Source of the DNA: a virus
Taxonomy: Duplodnaviria > Heunggongvirae > Uroviricota > Caudoviricetes
DNA length: 64,000 bases
IMG/VR virus record: IMGVR_UViG_3300032093_000003
Strand: one strand, 5' to 3'
The translations under genes and the position numbers were made by a program. The notes under the pieces are model-generated. The model did no database searches. It saw only the letters and a list, made by a program, of their open reading frames with translations, and was not told the DNA's origin. Positions 22,847 to 43,562 of the stretch are shown here, piece after piece. The number at the start of each line of letters is the position of its first letter. Position 1 is the stretch's first letter.

Positions 22847-24862
22847 ATGTCAGTAGATTTCATTGATGATGGGCAACCAACAAACCAAAATAAGAAAGGT
22901 AAGAGAAATTCTAATACACCTATATTAGATAATTTCTCAAGAGATTTGATAAAATTAGCACAAGAAGGTAAAATAGACCCTATTGTTGGTAGAGATAAAG
23001 AAGTAAAAAGAATTGCACAAATTCTTTCAAGAAAGAAGAAAAATAATGTTGTTATTGTGGGTGATGCCGGTGTGGGTAAATCGGCATTGGTTGAAAAATT
23101 GGCGCTATTGATTAATAAAGGTAACTGTCCTTCAAATCTTTTAGATAAAAGAATAATGTCATTGGATTTGACATCTTTAGTTGCGGGTACCAAGTATAGG
23201 GGTCAATTTGAAGAAAGGATTAAAGCGATATTAAATGAATTACAAGAAGCACCGAATGTAATTGTTTTTATTGATGAATTACACACAATGGTCGGTGCAG
23301 GTAATGCCAGCGGATCAATGGATGCAGCCAACATATTAAAACCCGCACTTGCTCGTGGTGAAATTCAATGTATTGGTGCAACAACTTTTGATGAATACAA
23401 AAAGAACATCGAAAAAGATTCTGCGTTAGTTAGAAGATTCCAAAAAATAATCTTACCGGAACCAACAGAAAAAGAAACTGTTGAAATTTTGGAAAATCTT
23501 AAAACATCATATGAGAATTTTCATAAAGTAAAATATGAAGATGGTGTTATTGATACTATTGTTAAAGTATCAAAAAGATTTATGACTGACAGACAATTTC
23601 CTGATAAGGCAATTGATATTATGGATGAATTAGGTTCAGAAAAGAAAATATCTAATAAAATACCTGAAAGTGTTGAAAAATTAAAACAAGAAGTTGAGGA
23701 AATAAAACAAAAAAAATTAGATGTCGTTAAAACACAGAATTATGAATTGGCAGCTAAATTAAGAGATACAGAAAAAACTGTTCTATCAAAATTAGAACAA
23801 GAAAAAGAAAAATGGTTGATAAACCAACAAAATAATAAAACACCAATTAGTATTGAAGATGTTTACCAGATAATTTCAAATATTACTGGTGTACCAATTA
23901 CAAAATTGGATTCAAAAGAAACAGAAAAACTTTTGAATTTAGATAAAATTTTAACATCTAAGGTTATTGGACAGAATGAGGCGATATCAATCATATCTAA
24001 ATGTATCAGAAGAAATAGAGTTGGTATTAAAGATACAAATAAACCAATCGGATCATTTATATTCTTAGGATCAACTGGTGTCGGTAAAACATATCTTGCA
24101 AAATCATTGGCTGAAATATTATTTGGTGATCCCGAAAAAATGATTCGTGTGGATATGAGTGAATTTATGGAGAAACACAATGTATCTAAATTAATTGGTT
24201 CACCTCCCGGTTACGTTGGATATGATGAAGGTGGTCAATTAACAGAAAAGGTAAAAAACAATCCATTTTCAGTTATATTGTTTGATGAAATTGAAAAGGC
24301 ACATAAAGATGTTTTCAATTTGTTGTTACAAATTTTAGATGAAGGACACTTAACCGATTCTTTTGGTAGAAAAGTTAACTTCACCAATACTTTGATTATT
24401 ATGACATCAAATGTTGGGGCTAAAAAAGTTTCTGAATTTGGTGGGGGAGTTGGTTTTGAAACATCTTCAACAAATAAACAAAAAGAAGAAGTTAAAAAAA
24501 CAATGATACAAAAATCATTGAAACAACAATTCAATCCTGAATTTTTAAATAGAATTGATGATGTAATCCTTTTCAATTCTTTAGACGAAAATGCACTAAA
24601 ACAAATTATTGGTGTTGAATTAAATAAATTAAAAAATAGATTAACTGAAAAAGGATACAAAGTTAATTTTGACGAATCAGTATCACAAAAGATATATGAA
24701 TTAAATCAACAAGAAGAATATGGAGCGAGACCCATAAAAAGAATAATACAAAATCTTTGTGAGGATTTCTTAAGTGAAGAAATTCTAAAAGGTACTATAA
24801 AAGAAAATGTTTTAGCAAATTTGAAAATTAAAGACGGAGAATTGGTAATTAGAAAAAAATAA
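22847..24862 (+). CDS. Hsp100/Clp ATPase (ClpB/ClpC-like, two AAA+ modules, no N-domain)
   Basis: NBD1 GDAGVGKSA / VIVFIDELHTMVGAG; NBD2 GSTGVGKT / SVILFDEIEKAHKDVFNLLLQILDEG; GSPPGYVGYDEGGQLTE signature; coiled-coil middle segment. Confidence 0.85.
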   Translation: MSVDFIDDGQPTNQNKKGKRNSNTPILDNFSRDLIKLAQEGKIDPIVGRDKEVKRIAQILSRKKKNNVVIVGDAGVGKSALVEKLALLINKGNCPSNLLDKRIMSLDLTSLVAGTKYRGQFEERIKAILNELQEAPNVIVFIDELHTMVGAGNASGSMDAANILKPALARGEIQCIGATTFDEYKKNIEKDSALVRRFQKIILPEPTEKETVEILENLKTSYENFHKVKYEDGVIDTIVKVSKRFMTDRQFPDKAIDIMDELGSEKKISNKIPESVEKLKQEVEEIKQKKLDVVKTQNYELAAKLRDTEKTVLSKLEQEKEKWLINQQNNKTPISIEDVYQIISNITGVPITKLDSKETEKLLNLDKILTSKVIGQNEAISIISKCIRRNRVGIKDTNKPIGSFIFLGSTGVGKTYLAKSLAEILFGDPEKMIRVDMSEFMEKHNVSKLIGSPPGYVGYDEGGQLTEKVKNNPFSVILFDEIEKAHKDVFNLLLQILDEGHLTDSFGRKVNFTNTLIIMTSNVGAKKVSEFGGGVGFETSSTNKQKEEVKKTMIQKSLKQQFNPEFLNRIDDVILFNSLDENALKQIIGVELNKLKNRLTEKGYKVNFDESVSQKIYELNQQEEYGARPIKRIIQNLCEDFLSEEILKGTIKENVLANLKIKDGELVIRKK

Positions 24863-29928: not shown

Positions 29929-29958
29929 TTTTGTTCTTTGACATTTTTGGAAATAGTT

Positions 29959-30047
29959 GCCCCGGTGGTGGAACAGGTAGACACGCAGGACTTAAAATCC
30001 TGTGGACCGAAACGTCCGTGCGGGTTCGATTCCCGCCTGGGGCACCA
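29959..30047 (+). tRNA. tRNA-Leu (anticodon TAA), type II with long variable arm, CCA encoded
   Basis: Acceptor GCCCCGG/CTGGGGC, anticodon loop CTTAAAA, T-loop GGTTCGATTCC, 3' CCA. Confidence 0.7.
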
Positions 30048-30084
30048 ATACTATCGTTCTTTGACATATAAGGAGAAACAAATT

Positions 30085-30479: not shown

Positions 30480-30898
30480 GGTTGAACGGGGAATGAAGAT
30501 TAAGACACCTGTTGGTGGTTGGTGATTATCTTCGGAGTTGGAACCAACATAGTAATGCCGTTCGTAAAAGAGGATGTCCACTCGACCATCTTCCTCTTTC
30601 CTTCTTGGTCTCATAGTTTAAGGGAAAAACGGTAGCCTTCTAAGCTTCTGATCCTAGTTCGAGTCTAGGTGAGACTACAAAGTTCCTGTAGGCCGCGGGA
30701 TCGTAGTTCCTCTATTCCACTGACAAAAGTCAAGAAAAGAGCCAGATCGTAAGCTGGATGGGTTGACAACTTTCCCACTGACTCGGAAAAAAGTTGTAAA
30801 TTTTAAGCGGGTCCTCGCTTCCCACGGTTTAATAGTACAAGGATAATGAAGGGAATAATACGACCCCTAAGACCTGCTTTTATTAAAAAAAATAAAAT
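30480..30898 (+). other. GC-rich structured noncoding region (~420 nt) with embedded tRNA-Arg-like gene
   Basis: No ORF, GC far above local background, multiple hairpins (e.g. TGTTGG...CCAACA, GAGGA...TCCTC). Confidence 0.3.
30607..30677 (+). tRNA. tRNA-Arg (anticodon TCT), candidate
   Basis: Acceptor GGTCTCA/TGAGACT, D-stem GTTT/AAAC, anticodon loop CTTCTAA (one stem mismatch), T-arm CCTAG-TTCGAGT-CTAGG. Confidence 0.45.
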
Positions 30899-37354: not shown

Positions 37355-38277
37355 GGAAACGATAAAGTTCTTTGAAAATATTGGGCGGTCTATAGTCCAT
37401 AAAATAAACCATGAAAGTGGTATAAAGTGGAATACCTTGGTTTTGGTATTCTGCGGCTTGGGTAACCGAGCTCGAGTAGACAAACGAGATATCGTCTGAC
37501 CTTTAGTACTGAGGGTAACACTGTAGGGAAAGTGGTTGGGCGATCAAGCGATGTGGGTCGTTTGGTTGAGGTGGGAACACCAATAAGAATAACTCGTAGA
37601 ATTATTGCAAGAAATGTTGTTATCCGACTTCATAATTGCGTTTTTCAATATTATGGTTGTCTTAAAACCGAAAGGTATGTTAGTGTACAGGTGGTGCTGT
37701 TATTAACCTTAACCTTAGCCTACCAAGGCATGAGTTATGAAGATGAGCAAAAATATGGAGGTGGGGACATCTCAGAGGGTAGTTTAGTATTTAGCCGTTC
37801 AAAAGATGGCTGAGCTGGTGACGAACCACTACCTTCACAATCCACAAACCAATAACTTGCATCCATTTAATTGCAAAATTAATAAATCAAGGAAAAGTGT
37901 TCGTCAGTTGTGGATGACAGGTCACTACATAGTCATGAGTTGTTCATGGCCATGAAGGGTCCCAAGCCCAACATGATTTTCACCAAAGTTCTCTAATCTC
38001 GCAAGGATTAATTGGGGTGGCAACCTCGAAGAGTGATGAGTAATGAGAGAGTGATTCACAACTTAAGGATTGGTTAATCTAATTGACCGTGACTGATTAT
38101 TACTACTCAAAAGGTAGTGGATAAGGGAAGAATCAATAATGTCCCAAAGATAATCACCCGAACGTGTAATCTCAGCGTTTTATTTTCCTGATTTTTATAA
38201 AATCATGGTGGTGGAGTAATAAAAAGATTTCATGCCGCAAGGCCCCAAAGGTTAGATTTTTCTAACCTTTTTTTGTT
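37355..38277 (+). ncRNA. candidate large structured ncRNA (~920 nt; GOLLD/ROOL-like class or novel)
   Basis: Promoter-to-terminator unit without credible ORF (only a 93-aa low-complexity ORF), GC well above flanking coding DNA, directly adjacent to tRNA array, ends in a strong intrinsic terminator. Confidence 0.4.
38247..38277 (+). terminator. intrinsic terminator ending the long ncRNA unit
   Basis: AAAGGTTAGATTTTTCTAACCTTTTTTTG. Confidence 0.55.
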
Positions 38278-38306
38278 TTTATATTTTTTTTATTTATATT
38301 ATACCT

Positions 38307-39059
38307 ATGAGATTAATTTGTATATCAGACACACATTCTTTACATGAAAGAATGACACATAAAGTTGAAAAATATATCGATCCTGATCAAGACAATATAC
38401 TCATCCATGCGGGGGATTGTACTAATATGGGTAGAGAACCTGAAATTATTGAATTTGTTTATTGGTATCAAAATTTAAAAGGATTTGATACCAAGATCTT
38501 TATTGCGGGTAATCATGATTTTGGTTTTGAACATTATAATGGTCTTCGTCATAGTAATGAGGCACCTTGGTTACATCATATAATAAATGAGGAGAATTTA
38601 TCTCAATCAGATGTCGTTTATCTTCATGATTCTGAATTTGTAATTGAACATCCGAAATTTTCAAGACCAATTAAATTTTATGGAAGTCCTTGGCAACCTG
38701 AATTTTATAATTGGGCATTTAATCTTCCAAGAAATGGTTGGGAGTTAGAACTTAAATGGAAAGAAATACCAGATGATACTGATATATTGATCACACACGG
38801 ACCTCCACATGGTTGTAGAGATTTTACACCACAAAATTTACAAGTTGGTTGTGAATTGTTGAGATATAGATTAGATACATTAAAACCACTTGTCCATGTG
38901 TTTGGACATATTCATCATGCATATGGTGGTGCATATATTGATGATGTTTTATACATTAACGCATCAACATGTACAGAAAGATATGTCCCACGTAATAGAC
39001 CTATTGTTGTTGATTTAAAAGAAGAAGATGGTAAAATAGTTACTACCTATATTGATTAA
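38307..39059 (+). CDS. calcineurin-like metallophosphoesterase
   Basis: Motifs GDCTNMG, AGNHDF, HGPP, GHIHHAYGG matching MPP superfamily signatures. Confidence 0.7.
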   Translation: MRLICISDTHSLHERMTHKVEKYIDPDQDNILIHAGDCTNMGREPEIIEFVYWYQNLKGFDTKIFIAGNHDFGFEHYNGLRHSNEAPWLHHIINEENLSQSDVVYLHDSEFVIEHPKFSRPIKFYGSPWQPEFYNWAFNLPRNGWELELKWKEIPDDTDILITHGPPHGCRDFTPQNLQVGCELLRYRLDTLKPLVHVFGHIHHAYGGAYIDDVLYINASTCTERYVPRNRPIVVDLKEEDGKIVTTYID

Positions 39060-39355: not shown

Positions 39356-39363
39356 TATATTTG
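39356..39363 (+). promoter_or_regulatory. -7 box TAtaTTTG upstream of tmRNA
   Basis: TAnnTTTG, followed by AAGTTCTTTAAAA box 12 nt before tmRNA 5' end. Confidence 0.45.
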
Positions 39364-39382
39364 TGAAAGTTCTTTAAAATAT

Positions 39383-39775
39383 GGGGGTGTCCAGGTATTG
39401 ATTGGCGTTTATATGGTAAATGGGCACGTAGTCAGATGTCATCTATGACTTAAATCTACGGTGGTAAAAATCAAACGGCAACGTTTACAACAACATGGAA
39501 ATTGCAGGTATCCTTGCAACTTCTAAAGTAGCTGCTTAATAAGTACCTACTGTCGGGTCGGTTAGGACATATAACCCAGGAACAGAAGTCCGTTATACGG
39601 GTCACAGGTCAGAGCTCGTTTAAAATAATTCTGAGACCAAGTTGTTTGTAGGTAGGTTTCTCACATATATCAAACCTAATATTTTGGAACATTGAGAACC
39701 AATGTTATACTAAACGTGTAGTCCATCTATTGTATGGCGAACAAGACAAGGGTTCGATTCCCTTCACCTCCACCA
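39383..39775 (+). ncRNA. ssrA: tmRNA (ssrA), phage-encoded
   Basis: 5' GGGGGTG pairs with 3' CACCTCC-A-CCA (G3:U70), T-arm AAGGG-TTCGATT-CCCTT, ~390 nt ORF-less, internal tag frame ...GILATSKVAA followed by TAA at 39537-39539, flanked by promoter and terminator. Confidence 0.7.
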
Positions 39776-39781
39776 AAAATT

Positions 39782-39810
39782 AAACCCATCGAATTCGATG
39801 GGTTTTTTAT
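39782..39810 (+). terminator. intrinsic terminator after tmRNA
   Basis: AAACCCATCGAATTCGATGGGTTTTTTAT. Confidence 0.55.
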
Positions 39811-41528: not shown

Positions 41529-43562
41529 TTAGAATTCTGCGTTTGAGTTAATCCATTTATATTTCATATCACCATCCCCTTTATCGACTTGTTTTGTTTC
41601 TACATATCCCTTATCTTCTAAATATTTGTTTAATATGTAGTAATCATTACCCGATAATTGTTTTCCTCTCCATACTGCGGCCAATCCTTTTTTAGGCCAT
41701 CTTTTTCTTTTAATTAATTTATTACTAGCCAATAATTCCTGTAATCTGTTTTCATCATATACAGGTTTAATTGGTGTTGGAGGAGGAGGTGCAGGTGTTG
41801 GTGCAACTGTAGGTGCTGGTGTTGCAGTAGGTCCTGGTACTGGTGTGCCGGTTGGACTTGGGTTTTTACCACAAATCTCTTTTTTAACATAATCGTAAAC
41901 TTCTTTAGTTATAGGATTAATTGGCATCTTCACACCTCTTTTTTCAATGATTTCCTCTCTAAGTTTCGCCATCGTTTTAGGTCCAAAATAACCTTTTTGA
42001 CTTGGTAAATCTAAACATGCTTGTATTTCGGCTATTTTTTCATTTCTACATCCGAATTCAAACGGGAAATCTTTACATTCTTTATATGGTACCGGTTCTT
42101 TTGTTGGTCTAGGTTCTTTTGTTGGACCAGGTACAGGAGGTACAGGACCATCTGTTGGTTTTGGTTGACCATCCCAAGTAATTTCAACACCACCTAAATC
42201 ACCGGTATTGGTACCACCTCCACCGCCTTTACCACTTTCAATTTGGTTTATTAATGAATACATCTCTTGTTTGGCTCTAACAGATGATGCGTTTACTGTG
42301 TAGATATAATCTAATGATTTTTTTAGACTACCACCACCTAAACCTGATGCTTGGTATAGTTTCAAGAATTCTTTACCATTAGCACTTCCAGCATATTTTT
42401 TAAGTAATGCTAATGCACTTTGTAAATCACTACCTGAAACAGGGAAATCCAATAAATCAATCATTGTTTCAACATCATTATCTATTGATGAAGTTGCTGC
42501 CTCATTTATATCTTCATCTATAGTTTGGATGTTACCACCTTTACATTTCCAACTACCCATGGCCCCCGTCTCTGTATTCATTACTCTACCATTTGTGAAA
42601 AATTGTACTCCTTTAGGATATTCACTTGATTTAACAATAACCCAAACTTGGCCAGTTGAACTTGTCTCTACTTTACCTTGTTGTTTATTTATTAAATCTT
42701 GAATACATGGTGCCCATTGTCCATCATTTGGTGGTGGTGTTGGTGGGAAATCTTCTGGAACAGTTTCTCCACTATCTGCCATCATCCACCATAAGGCCGC
42801 TGCAGTTAAACCACCGGCTAGACCCCATTTTAATATATCTTTCCAACTCTTTCCTTGTTTTATCCAAATAATTATTTTAATATACCAAGGTCTTGGAATT
42901 GGTGGTGGCGGTACCGGTGGTGGTTTTGGTAAAGTTATCTCTCCACCGCCAGTTTTTTTAATTCTTCTATTTATGGCTTTATCAACTGCTTTAGTTGATA
43001 CCCCGCCTCCCGATTTCATTTCTCTCGCACCTTTTTGAAGTAATGCCTCCGCTTCTTTAGCGGACATTCCATATGTTTTTTGTAATGTTTCAGATGCCAA
43101 TTTAAAGTTTTCAGGATTTGCTGGCATTGCACCTCCTTTAGGATAAACCTTTTTTAGAATTTCTTTAAATGTTGGTGATTCACCAATAAGACCTTTTAAT
43201 TTTAGTGCAATTTCAGGAACTTTATTTGCTTGTTTAATTACAAGAAATTTCTCAGCAGTACTGAGAGCCCCTGCTTCACCCGGTGCCTTTTTCATTGCGA
43301 TTAATAACTCGTCAGCGGTTTTAAATCTAGAAAGTGCGGGTATTTCATTTTTTAATGTGGAAAATAAACCTTTTTCTGATTTTAAAATACTACCGATTGC
43401 TTCAATACCTTGTTGAGCAACTTTTGTTACTTGTTCTTCAATATTTTCAGGATTTTCTTCTTCTGATACCTCGATATTGGGATCTTCATTTTCTAATTTA
43501 TCATTAACTGATTCAACTAATGATATCATTTTTCTAATTAATAATGCGTCTCTATTTTCCAT
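41529..43562 (-). CDS. large hypothetical protein with TM segment, P/T-rich linkers and a peptidoglycan-binding-like motif (possible virion ejection/tail protein)
   Basis: 677 aa; KGYFGPKTMAKLREEI resembles PG_binding_1 core; PTGTPVPGPTATPAPT linker. Confidence 0.3.
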   Translation of the reverse strand: MENRDALLIRKMISLVESVNDKLENEDPNIEVSEEENPENIEEQVTKVAQQGIEAIGSILKSEKGLFSTLKNEIPALSRFKTADELLIAMKKAPGEAGALSTAEKFLVIKQANKVPEIALKLKGLIGESPTFKEILKKVYPKGGAMPANPENFKLASETLQKTYGMSAKEAEALLQKGAREMKSGGGVSTKAVDKAINRRIKKTGGGEITLPKPPPVPPPPIPRPWYIKIIIWIKQGKSWKDILKWGLAGGLTAAALWWMMADSGETVPEDFPPTPPPNDGQWAPCIQDLINKQQGKVETSSTGQVWVIVKSSEYPKGVQFFTNGRVMNTETGAMGSWKCKGGNIQTIDEDINEAATSSIDNDVETMIDLLDFPVSGSDLQSALALLKKYAGSANGKEFLKLYQASGLGGGSLKKSLDYIYTVNASSVRAKQEMYSLINQIESGKGGGGGTNTGDLGGVEITWDGQPKPTDGPVPPVPGPTKEPRPTKEPVPYKECKDFPFEFGCRNEKIAEIQACLDLPSQKGYFGPKTMAKLREEIIEKRGVKMPINPITKEVYDYVKKEICGKNPSPTGTPVPGPTATPAPTVAPTPAPPPPTPIKPVYDENRLQELLASNKLIKRKRWPKKGLAAVWRGKQLSGNDYYILNKYLEDKGYVETKQVDKGDGDMKYKWINSNAEF

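Follow-up and report, generated by a model that had tools for sequence, protein, structure and literature searches.

A GOLLD RNA gene behind a boxA-like leader in a tRNA- and tmRNA-rich phage with a probable Bacteroidota host

Described cage RNAs and the present locus

GOLLD RNAs have been known since 2009, and their cage structure since 2025. The main point of reference for the present work is env-38, a GOLLD from a marine metagenome which was resolved by cryo-EM as a 14-mer nanocage with D7 symmetry (PDB 9MEE; Kretsch et al. 2025, PMC12286853). In this structure the cap is built from the 5′ domain, and the linker is disordered and points into the cage (PMC12286853), while the self-complementary loops L21a and L21b provide the cage-closing kissing contacts between the half-shells (PMC12286853; PMC12990946). 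The env-38 gene was described downstream of a tRNA-Met (PMC12286853). The Rfam family RF02032 further comprises mycobacterial and Lactobacillales prophage GOLLDs as well as that of Streptococcus agalactiae, a 12-mer (PDB 9L0R; PMC12990946); in a Lactobacillus prophage, expression of GOLLD is reported to rise in phage lytic growth (cited in PMC12286853).

The locus described here lies in a stretch of 64,000 nucleotides (the window) that carries phage genes for the major head protein, portal and large terminase, together with a total of 23 tRNAs and a tmRNA. Its ORF-less unit of about 0.9 kb is a GOLLD RNA, a new example of this known class of giant non-coding RNA. With high confidence, the whole is read as the GOLLD gene of an uncultured T4-like tailed phage, most likely of a Bacteroidota host, which encodes a probably cage-forming RNA behind a promoter and a boxA-like leader. 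The features are:

37133-37205, plus strand: tRNA-Met (CAT), 73 nt, called by ARAGORN and Rfam, preceded by a separate promoter (37084-37114) and a boxA-like leader (37119-37131)
37313-37344, plus strand: Bacteroidota-type promoter, −33 TTTG at 37313-37316 and −7 TATCTTTG at 37337-37344, 20 nt apart
37352-37363, plus strand: weakly predicted leader hairpin ATCG-GAAA-CGAT, from the fold of 37345-37383 (−3.3 kcal/mol, z −0.7)
37366-37383, plus strand: boxA-like rRNA-leader element AGTTCTTTGAAAATATTG, core GTTCTTTGAAA at 37367-37377
37384-37774, plus strand: GOLLD 5′ domain of the env-38 type, 391 nt (nhmmer, 55 loci), ~75% identical to env-38 residues 1-420 (approximate numbering)
37775-38178, plus strand: universally conserved GOLLD 3′ domain (RF02032, cmscan), ~72% identical to env-38 residues 421-833 (approximate numbering)
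37844-37900, plus strand: A/U-rich variable linker, 57 nt, 74% A+T, aligned to a stretch left unpaired in the Rfam model and to the env-38 linker region
37996-38008, plus strand: hairpin P21a, loop CGCAA with GC at 38001-38002
38012-38029, plus strand: hairpin P21b, loop GGCA with GC at 38020-38021
38186-38246, plus strand: sub-clade-specific 3′ tail (predicted fold), with an A/T hairpin at 38189-38205, TGGTGGTGGAG at 38206-38216 and a GNRA hairpin GCCGCAAGGC at 38234-38243
38247-38277, plus strand: intrinsic terminator (terminator scan), 10-bp stem at 38247-38270, 4-nt loop and T-run

The conserved core comprises ~795-802 nt, from 37384 to 38178-38185; homology with the relatives begins at 37383/37384 and stops at ~38180-38185. 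The interval 37355-38277, which a preliminary description of this DNA had given for the unit, corresponds to the likely primary transcript, consisting of leader, RNA, 60-nt tail and terminator, but not to the conserved core. The same description had placed a promoter box at 37337 and a strong intrinsic terminator at 38247-38277; both were found again, the former now with its −33 TTTG and the latter with its 10-bp stem and T-run.

Identity, architecture and fold of the RNA

The cmscan match to RF02032 at 37775-38178 on the plus strand covers model positions 1-416 of 416 with 338.5 bits (E 2.3e-96), more than twice the GOLLD gathering score of 150 bits in Rfam, and zero non-canonical pairs are flagged in its alignment. 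RF02032 models the 3′ half only, such that the 5′ 390 nt fall outside every Rfam model. This part is, on the other hand, homologous to 55 viral-contig GOLLD loci, with full-length nhmmer matches (best E 5.5e-75), and in these 55 it runs on into a GOLLD 3′ domain; in the window, too, the two domains adjoin, the 5′ one with a length of 391 nt, as expected of GOLLD RNAs with their ~700-830 nt or more in total. A search of viral contigs with the pattern GAGTAATGANAGAGT...GTGTAATCTCAG was too strict and gave zero matches, and looser patterns recovered the relatives. An artefactual origin of the Rfam match and of the env-38 homology is effectively excluded.

The window RNA and env-38 are homologous end to end, the identities listed above referring to aligned positions of an env-38 sequence that was taken from PDF text and comprises 816 of the 833 nt. 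Both RNAs show the same order of 5′ domain, 3′ domain and A/U-rich linker inside the 3′ half, both carry P21a and P21b with self-complementary GC loops, both have a tRNA-Met as neighbour, and their lengths are similar (~800 versus 833 nt). They differ in that env-38, like a few of the relatives, carries a longer insertion at the site of a short GAAA-capped hairpin (37667-37676) of the window RNA, and in that the window RNA has an extra 60-nt 3′ tail before the terminator. With the RF02032 members it shares the full-length 3′ domain and the location in a phage next to tRNA genes. In contrast to the window RNA, whose 5′ domain is of the env-38 type, the S. agalactiae GOLLD is reduced and lacks P9, P11a-c and P21b (PMC12990946). 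Mycobacterial GOLLDs hold a tRNA in the linker (PMC12990946), whereas a tRNA search found none embedded in the linker at 37844-37900, the length of which varies from 44 to 68 nt among relatives.

The consensus fold obtained with RNAalifold from 46 sequences contains 194 pairs, 145 of them with compensatory changes. Covariation support for the helices is overwhelming: 155 of 221 pairs are altered on both sides, paired cells amount to 95.6%, as opposed to 78.3% in shuffles and ~40% in slid controls, and none of 500 shuffles reaches any of the measures. In the 5′ domain, nearly all of helices 1-20 show compensatory changes; in the 3′ domain, helices 23-39 are 86-100% paired, with compensatory changes in most, in an independent 46-sequence alignment. 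The long-range helix enclosing P18-P22 (columns 645-654 with 796-813) has nine of ten pairs changed on both sides. A loop census of the 46 sequences revealed conserved GAAA loops in the 5′ domain and, in the hairpin at 37688-37699, a GTGGTG loop that is invariant (46/46). The loop L21a reads CGCAA in 34/46 and GTCGA in 7/46, which amounts to a GC-to-CG switch; the same switch has been published as evidence for bridge B8 (PMC12286853; PMC12990946). L21b is GGCA in 36/46, its GC being conserved.

By homology to the 14-mer of env-38 and the 12-mer of S. agalactiae, the window RNA would self-assemble, with no protein involved, into a closed nanocage of dihedral symmetry, whose two half-shells would be joined by the L21a and L21b loops that the RNA has kept. 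Homology thus renders cage formation likely. The stoichiometry could differ, with 12 and 14 both known in the family, because the window RNA is devoid of the env-38 insertion, and the S. agalactiae RNA, which lacks P11a-c and P21b, is a 12-mer; nor should the copy number be taken from env-38, since the identity is far from complete.

The preliminary description had proposed a giant structured non-coding RNA that might be GOLLD, ROOL or a new class. The full-length match bears out the first option, and the RNA fits both the GOLLD model and env-38, which leaves the notion of a new class unsupported. ROOL resembles GOLLD as a large, ornate, phage-associated and tRNA-adjacent RNA-only cage (PMC12286853) but is unrelated to the window RNA in sequence and fold. 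That the unit belongs to a large RNA class other than GOLLD, be it a new one, ROOL, a group I or II intron, RNase P or a riboswitch-like leader, is scarcely conceivable. The 5′ 390 nt, devoid of an Rfam model, could pass for a new element if taken alone; yet they are joined to a GOLLD 3′ domain in the 55 loci and match the 5′ domain of the solved env-38 structure. The Rfam comparison that had been recommended found no ROOL, group I/II intron or RNase P at gathering thresholds in the whole window, and a permissive scan of 35850-38320 (E ≤ 0.1) returned GOLLD alone, these three and all other families being absent. Equally negligible is the prospect that the region encodes a small protein and that its structure is incidental. 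The longest ORF of the unit does have a GTG start (37532-37813, 93 aa; the same frame had been picked out before as the best one), but the homologous segment is stop-free in any frame in only one of 45 relatives, its length modulo 3 is evenly spread (17, 15 and 13 relatives), with indels that are not multiples of three, and the column entropy by codon position (0.756, 0.684, 0.710) displays neither a third-position excess nor a three-base periodicity. A full-length GOLLD model match and covarying helices cover the region as well. The coding reading was rejected on these comparative data from the 46-sequence family. A conserved ORF with third-position variation, or helices without covariation, had been named beforehand as findings that would speak against a structured RNA, and the data point the other way on both counts.

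Very improbable, too, is a long untranslated leader of the metallophosphoesterase mRNA (38307-39059) that yields no stable RNA. The gene lies on the same strand as the GOLLD unit and begins 30 nt past the terminator, but it is precisely this strong intrinsic terminator that parts the two, which disposes of the mere mRNA leader considered in the preliminary description. The related GOLLDs are likewise followed by their own terminator (33/46) or by tRNA-Met, and then by unrelated sequence, and GOLLD RNAs are known as discrete, stable and self-assembling (PMC12286853). The GC content is in keeping with the earlier remark that it exceeds that of the surrounding coding DNA: it is 0.394 in 37355-38277 and rises to 0.405 in the RNA core, whereas the window as a whole has 0.307 and the coding sequences on either side have 0.315-0.322.

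Promoter and boxA-like leader

Judged by its sequence context, the Bacteroidota-type promoter at 37313-37344 would be the place where host RNA polymerase starts. The underlying pattern, TTTG-N18-22-TAnnTTTG, is enriched: the window has 15 copies where 5.46 ± 2.32 would be expected, and none of 100 shuffles reaches this count. The GOLLD promoter is part of a 62-nt cassette that is repeated four times around RNA genes, a TAnnTTTG box lies upstream of 41/46 related GOLLDs, and the top 10-mers ahead of Bacteroidota 16S genes include TA(C/T)CTTTGCA. E. coli-type sigma-70 promoters are not enriched in the window (9 versus 15.2 expected), as is to be anticipated with a Bacteroidota host, and the Bacteroidota pattern was preferred to a promoter of this type.

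Between the promoter and the GOLLD 5′ end sits GTTCTTTGAAAATATTG, the top motif of Bacteroidota 16S leaders, and at the place of the leader hairpin the related locus L046 carries a similar sequence, ATAGGAAACGAT. The motif AGTTCTTTRA is found four times in the window (0.89 expected), in three cases directly upstream of tRNA-Met, GOLLD and tmRNA. The 10-mer GTTCTTTRAA with one mismatch is not enriched window-wide (36 versus 32), only the exact, longer form being so, and the signal is carried by the placement of the motif. Among the related GOLLDs, 45/46 have it within 250 nt upstream, with one occurrence downstream and one on the reverse strand. A Bacteroidota boxA-like consensus was derived here from 16S leaders: the motif is the top 9-mer of 97 such leaders, present in 50/97 as opposed to 0/72 controls, and in 3/97 on the reverse strand. 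Some Bacteroidota 16S leaders are identical to the GOLLD leader element over 17 nt, and the motif recurs in the 16S-23S spacer of 14 loci, on the sense strand only, with zero occurrences inside 16S. The published boxA consensus GYTCTTTAANA is gamma-proteobacterial (PMC5725501). The GOLLD leader GTTCTTTGAAA agrees with it at 10 of 11 positions, having G at position 8 where this consensus has A; the tRNA-Met leader GTTCTTTAAAC likewise agrees at 10 of 11, and the tmRNA leader GTTCTTTAAAA at all 11. The motif also precedes the tRNA-Met, tmRNA and tRNA-Leu genes of the window. To judge from its position, the GOLLD copy, which begins 23 nt past the −7 box, is almost certainly transcribed; ahead of tRNA-Met and tmRNA it begins ~6 nt past the −7 box, such that it may overlap the transcription start or lie partly ahead of it. 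Many GOLLD relatives carry the motif 60-120 nt ahead of the RNA 5′ end and 25-45 nt past the −7 box. GOLLDs lacking it exist: in Acinetobacter phage AM24 the motif is absent within 1 kb upstream.

The GOLLD leader element is indistinguishable from that of Bacteroidota rRNA leaders, which suggests that the promoter and leader signal ahead of GOLLD may have been copied from the ribosomal RNA operons of a Bacteroidota host. As in the rRNA operons with their NusB/NusE-binding boxA, the same motif stands close to the promoter, within the leader of a long transcript that is not translated, and the identity extends to the 16S leaders and 16S-23S spacers of Bacteroidota. Known parallels are the boxA elements ahead of suhB (Baniulyte et al. 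2017, PMC5725501) and of CRISPR arrays (Stringer et al. 2020, PMC7665894). The arrays are long untranslated transcripts for which boxA has been documented in Bacteroidetes as well, and the rationale, protection of a non-coding RNA from Rho, would be common to them and GOLLD (PMC7665894). The difference from host boxA is that the candidate Nus site is here phage-encoded, ahead of GOLLD, tRNA and tmRNA genes. A boxA-like motif ahead of GOLLD appears undescribed; a literature search found no paper joining GOLLD with boxA, and one on the motif string gave unrelated primer matches only.

It can be envisaged that the ~33-nt leader carries the element at 37367-37377 in the nascent RNA, where it might recruit NusB and NusE (S10) and, with them, an rRNA-type antitermination complex, which would shield the long untranslated transcript from Rho and aid its co-transcriptional folding. 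One promoter-plus-boxA module might likewise drive tRNA-Met, tmRNA and tRNA-Leu, making GOLLD part of a stable-RNA set of the phage. The full proposal, that GOLLD mimics an rRNA operon in which a genuine boxA recruits the host Nus/chaperone complex for Rho escape and cage folding within a shared stable-RNA regulon, is tentative and stands slightly short of an even chance.

Somewhat unlikely, although to be taken seriously, is the alternative that GTTCTTTGAA is not a Nus boxA but directs processing by an RNase, belongs to the promoter or the initially transcribed region of strong stable-RNA promoters, or binds some other factor of host or phage. The short distance of ~6 nt from the −7 box in front of tRNA-Met and tmRNA is near enough for a start region, and in 16S and GOLLD leaders the motif is often followed by ATATTG and then by the mature 5′ end, which would fit a processing site. 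Moreover, the searchable literature holds neither an experimentally defined Bacteroidota boxA nor NusB/NusE binding to the motif in Bacteroidota, and the eLife paper on CRISPR boxA, with its supplements, gives no Bacteroidetes rRNA boxA consensus (PMC7665894). Against this, 10 or 11 of 11 positions agree with the published, gamma-proteobacterial consensus, the occurrence in rRNA leader and 16S-23S spacer on the sense strand only is the classical placement of boxA, the relatives with the motif 60-120 nt from the RNA 5′ end are unlike what a promoter element or a mature-end site would show, and boxA ahead of CRISPR arrays has its precedent in Bacteroidetes (PMC7665894). If the motif did not function as boxA, the GOLLD identification would stand and only the expression mechanism would differ.

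The locus as such is a further clean, full-length env-38-type GOLLD in a tRNA- and tmRNA-rich phage, useful rather than surprising. Potential importance attaches to the expression module, in which GOLLDs follow a promoter of the rRNA type and a boxA-like leader. If the element proved functional, the escape of a long untranslated phage RNA from Rho would be accounted for, and GOLLD expression would be tied to the transcription machinery of the host's ribosome synthesis; the likely primary transcript and point mutations in boxA would then offer a handle on GOLLD production. Furthermore, the motif points, from sequence alone, to Bacteroidota as hosts of these uncultured phages.

The 3′ end, the tRNA neighbourhood and the phage

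Transcription would end at the terminator at 38247-38277. A strong hairpin-plus-T terminator occurs within 200 nt downstream of 33/46 related GOLLDs, at a median of +50. The tail in front of it is shared by few relatives, a hairpin and TGGTGGA at +18 to +40 being present in L046, L105, L033 and L031 only. A contact of the tail sequence UGGUGGUGGAG with the CCA ends of tmRNA or tRNAs is speculative, and covariation was not found. Pairing with the tmRNA 3′ end in particular was rejected: the window has an 8-nt perfect complement, but L033 has TGGTGGAA opposite the same CTCCAC(C)A end, without covariation. Pairing with the GOLLD's own 5′ end was dropped as well, there being no consistent register across the window, L046, L033 and L031.

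With respect to the phage, distant T4-like relatives were found, Flavobacterium phages among them. No close cultured relative emerged: a megablast search of phages with 24 kb of the window gave tRNA-Ser matches only, and a 677-aa protein encoded at 41529-43562 had neither a tblastn match in phages nor a PHROG.

The array of 13 tRNAs given in the preliminary description is confirmed for ten (ARAGORN and Rfam, 36179-37205). The remaining three, tRNA-sized stretches at 36097-36178, 36896-36988 and 36989-37064, have cloverleaf-like folds and are plausible, but were not called; one of them shows a sub-threshold tRNA-Sec-like match (38 bits). The tRNA-Met lies 178 nt upstream of GOLLD, the same 73-nt tRNA-Met precedes GOLLD by 177-468 nt in six related loci, and in six others a tRNA-Met follows directly downstream. 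This conserved association with tRNA-Met, tRNA arrays and tmRNA suggests that the role of GOLLD may be related to translation.

Identity of the element and its transcription unit

The element next to the tRNA array encodes an env-38-type GOLLD RNA; its gene is carried by a phage and adjoins a tRNA-Met. An Rfam scan of the entire window gave a GOLLD match (RF02032) at 37775-38178 that spanned model positions 1-416 of 416 and scored 338.5 bits (E 2.3e-96) against a gathering score of 150, and a permissive scan of 35850-38320 returned nothing else at E <= 0.1 beyond tRNAs and chance-level matches. The Rfam model covers the universally conserved 3' domain only, so that the 5' 390 nt needed evidence of their own. 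In the phage collection, the closest entries come from two uncultured phages (635-642 kb) that lack annotation; the similarity begins exactly at 37383 and spans both halves, and both phages have full-length GOLLD matches adjoining tRNAs. Relatives were collected by two pattern scans of viral contigs and then nhmmer, which yielded full-length homologues of the 5' half in 55 viral loci (best E 5.5e-75), directly abutting the GOLLD 3' domain in all 55. The GOLLD env-38 forms a 14-mer nanocage known from cryo-EM; aligned with it from end to end, the window RNA is ~75% identical over the 5' domain and ~72% over the 3' domain. Residue numbers of env-38 are approximate, its sequence having been taken from the PDF text of the Kretsch et al. 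2025 supplement (816 nt vs 833 nt). Every GOLLD membership feature testable here was found in the window element. The preliminary description had considered GOLLD, ROOL or a new RNA class; the first is confirmed, and a new class is ruled out by the full-length RF02032 match and the env-38 homology.

Main features of the GOLLD unit
37313-37316, + strand: -33 TTTG, 20 nt upstream of TATCTTTG
37337-37344, + strand: -7 box TATCTTTG, from direct sequence reading
37366-37383, + strand: boxA-like leader AGTTCTTTGAAAATATTG, conserved across GOLLD upstream flanks
37844-37900, + strand: A/U-rich variable linker, 57 nt, 74% A+T
38247-38270, + strand: terminator, 10-bp hairpin followed by a T-run, from a terminator scan
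Hairpin P21a: loop CGCAA, tying the window RNA to the solved structure
Hairpin P21b: loop GGCA, likewise

The promoter-to-terminator unit proposed earlier was borne out by the -7 box and the terminator hairpin with its T-run, as was its elevated GC content (0.394 for 37355-38277 and 0.405 for the conserved core vs 0.307 for the window and 0.315-0.322 for flanking coding sequences). The window has 15 occurrences of TTTG-N18-22-TAnnTTTG vs 5.46 +/- 2.32 expected, and 0/100 shuffles reach 15; the GOLLD promoter lies inside a 62-nt cassette, four repeats of which surround RNA genes. A strong terminator follows within 200 nt in 33 of 46 related GOLLDs, and most of the others continue into a tRNA-Met. 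Two cassette copies besides that of GOLLD were observed on the + strand. An "orphan" copy (TTTG...TATATTTG, 37225-37255, within 37203-37297) has a hairpin (TTCGGTAATACACACCGAA) behind it and then, at 37286, the degenerate boxA-like motif GTTCTTAAAA, with no gene between this copy and the GOLLD promoter; the copy may have arisen by duplication and decayed, or it could give rise to a very short RNA. The copy at 35877-35907, just before the tRNA array, precedes a 34-aa ORF that begins at 35938, and the unit closes with a strong terminator (36060-36092). The sole Rfam match in this unit (35877-36092) was a chance-level His_leader (E 0.067), and the unit could be leader-peptide/attenuator-like or encode a small RNA.

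Covariation and putative cage features

The longest ORF in 37355-38277 comprises 93 aa (37532-37813). The homologous segment is open in only one of 45 relatives, its length modulo 3 is evenly spread, and no third-position excess was found among these 45; a protein-coding reading is thereby ruled out, in keeping with the earlier impression that the unit holds no convincing ORF. In an alignment of 46 full-length sequences (60-79% identity to the window RNA), the RNAalifold consensus contained 194 pairs, 145 of them with compensatory changes. For a slightly fuller structure, 95.6% of cells were paired vs 78.3% in column shuffles and ~40% in slid controls. The structure was built from the same alignment and is thereby favoured over the slid controls; the margin far exceeds this bias. 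Both-sided change was seen in 155 of 221 pairs, and 0/500 shuffles reached any of five measures. The fold is thus supported by covariation, and the RNA is not translated.

The L21a loop reads CGCAA in 34 sequences and GTCGA in seven, the same GC-to-CG switch of the self-complementary dinucleotide from which Kretsch et al. argued for an intermolecular kissing contact (PMC12286853, PMC12990946). In contrast to env-38, which has a longer insertion at this position, the window RNA carries a short GAAA-capped hairpin (37667-37676), and it further differs by a 60-nt 3' tail. By homology, the window GOLLD likely self-assembles into an RNA-only nanocage, the copy number of which may differ from that of env-38: both 12- and 14-mers are known in the family, depending on the peripheral helices carried (PMC12990946).

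Another hairpin of the 5' domain, CAG-GTGGTG-CTG (37688-37699, + strand), has a loop that is invariant in 46/46 sequences and a stem that covaries (CAG/CTG vs CGA/TCG); the hairpin is a candidate tertiary or intermolecular contact. The 3' tail contains TGGTGGTGGAG (38206-38216, + strand), the final 8 nt of which are perfectly complementary to CTCCACCA, the 3' end of the tmRNA (39768-39775, + strand), and TGGTGGA is kept in the tails of sub-clade relatives. This complementarity may be coincidence, since no compensating change was found between tail (TGGTGGAA) and tmRNA end in the related locus L033.

A boxA-like leader shared with rRNA operons

Comparison of upstream flanks revealed that a motif located between promoter and GOLLD 5' end is conserved, with near-identical copies after the promoters of tRNA-Met (37119) and tmRNA (39368). 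AGTTCTTTRA occurs four times in the window vs 0.89 expected, three of these at the GOLLD, tRNA-Met and tmRNA leaders, and the one-mismatch forms GTTCTTTGAC and GATCTTTGAA lie ahead of tRNA-Leu and the 11-tRNA array. Among the 46 GOLLDs, [GT]TTCTTT[GA]A was found on the same strand within 250 nt upstream in 45, downstream in one and on the reverse strand in one, and at 41 loci it is closely preceded by a TAnnTTTG box. Eight further GOLLDs, with 5' domains unmatched to the window by nhmmer, carry the motif at their 5' edge; it is absent upstream in Acinetobacter phage AM24 and a few other GOLLDs. In six loci (L228, L040, L004, L196, L186, L199) the motif stands 80-100 nt upstream of GOLLD, and the gap holds an extra conserved element (e.g. 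...TTATCCATTCAGG... or GTTGATGATGAGACCTTCGGGTTGATTCTGAGAC), absent from the window, that may be additional leader structure. GTTCTTTGAC, a form typical of Bacteroidota 16S-23S spacers, flanks tRNA-Leu (29959-30047) on both sides (29933-29942 and 30056-30065, + strand), its second copy being followed by an ORF-containing stretch (to ~30450) before the tRNA-Arg at 30607.

For comparison, 120 genomic loci with a Bacteroidota-type 16S 5' end were fetched, of which 97 with 400 nt of upstream sequence were used. The commonest 9-mer in these leaders is GTTCTTTGA (43/97); the motif occurs in 50/97 leaders vs 0/72 control regions and 3/97 on the reverse strand, and in several the sequence is GTTCTTTGAAAATATTG, a 17-nt stretch of which is the same in the GOLLD leader. 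At 14 loci the motif recurs in the 16S-23S spacer, each time in sense orientation, and no boxA-like motif was found inside 16S in the Bacteroidota loci. In E. coli, boxA classically sits in both leader and spacer. The window copies agree at 10, 10 and 11 of 11 positions with GYTCTTTAANA, which is the gamma-proteobacterial consensus (Baniulyte et al. 2017, PMC5725501). Other long untranslated transcripts, namely CRISPR arrays, are shielded from Rho by boxA, Bacteroidetes included (Stringer et al. 2020, PMC7665894).

From these sequence comparisons it can be envisaged that the host polymerase would initiate at the Bacteroidota-type promoter, that the boxA-like leader would recruit NusB/S10 and an rRNA-type antitermination complex protecting the 0.8-kb untranslated transcript from Rho and aiding its co-transcriptional folding, and that transcription would end at 38247-38277; the chances that the leader functions in this way are about even. 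No literature tying GOLLD to boxA or antitermination was found, and the rRNA-style leader would, as far as searched, represent an undescribed facet of the expression of many GOLLDs. Because the promoter-plus-boxA module is shared, and because 17 nt of the leader are identical in Bacteroidota rRNA operons, we infer a Bacteroidota host for the window phage. Neither the RNA class nor the host group is new, since Flavobacteriia and Bacteroides assemblies are already represented in the published GOLLD alignment, as is Acinetobacter phage AM24. In the latter (KY000079.2, 2807-3175) an unannotated full-length GOLLD 3' domain (214.7 bits) lies inside the tRNA island; for the matching stretch of a related phage, Ab15, the annotation gives a hypothetical protein.

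The tRNA and tmRNA neighbourhood

In the window, 23 tRNAs and a tmRNA were called. The 13-tRNA array of the preliminary description holds for ten tRNAs, confirmed upstream of GOLLD at 36179-37205; three more are cloverleaf-like and uncalled, which leaves 13 plausible.

Neighbouring RNA features
36097-36178, 36896-36988 and 36989-37064, + strand: uncalled tRNA-sized gaps of the second tRNA array, with cloverleaf-like folds and T-arm-like sequences
39356-39363: tmRNA -7 box TATATTTG
39368-39380: boxA-like leader of the tmRNA
39383-39775, + strand: tmRNA (RF00023, 86.8 bits vs gathering score 47), uncalled by ARAGORN
39782-39805: tmRNA terminator

The three gaps, called neither by ARAGORN nor by the Rfam tRNA model, have apparent anticodon loops CUUGCAA, CUGCUAA and CUCAUAA, the middle one giving a sub-threshold tRNA-Sec-like match (38 bits), and may represent phage tRNAs of an unusual kind. 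Within and after the first tRNA array, three stretches reach a GC content of up to 0.49 (34956-35138, + strand; 34470-34623; 34778-34882). Neither tRNAs nor Rfam families were called there, and a convincing + strand ORF is lacking; they could hold further unusual tRNAs or small RNAs.

A 73-nt tRNA-Met lies 178 nt upstream of the window GOLLD, an arrangement common to the six closest relatives with enough flanking sequence and resembling that of env-38, also described downstream of a tRNA-Met (PMC12286853); in six other relatives a tRNA-Met follows directly downstream. A tmRNA is also found near GOLLD in three related loci (L033, L153, L222), and the window tag frame, (G)NVYNNMEIAGILATSKVAA followed by two stops, is close to the L033 tag given by ARAGORN (GNVYNNMEIAGLLATSKVAA). 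These conserved neighbours (tRNA-Met, tRNA arrays and tmRNA) suggest translation as the field of GOLLD action.

The phage itself is tailed, with a gp23-like major head protein, portal and large terminase, and its nearest relatives (<30-42% protein identity) include a Microcystis phage, Flavobacterium phages and huge phages that are uncultured. Its genome also has a large AAA+ protease-like gene (22847-24862, + strand), the 671-aa product of which matches PHROG 4871, "ATP-dependent protease", with 804 bits (E 3e-241).
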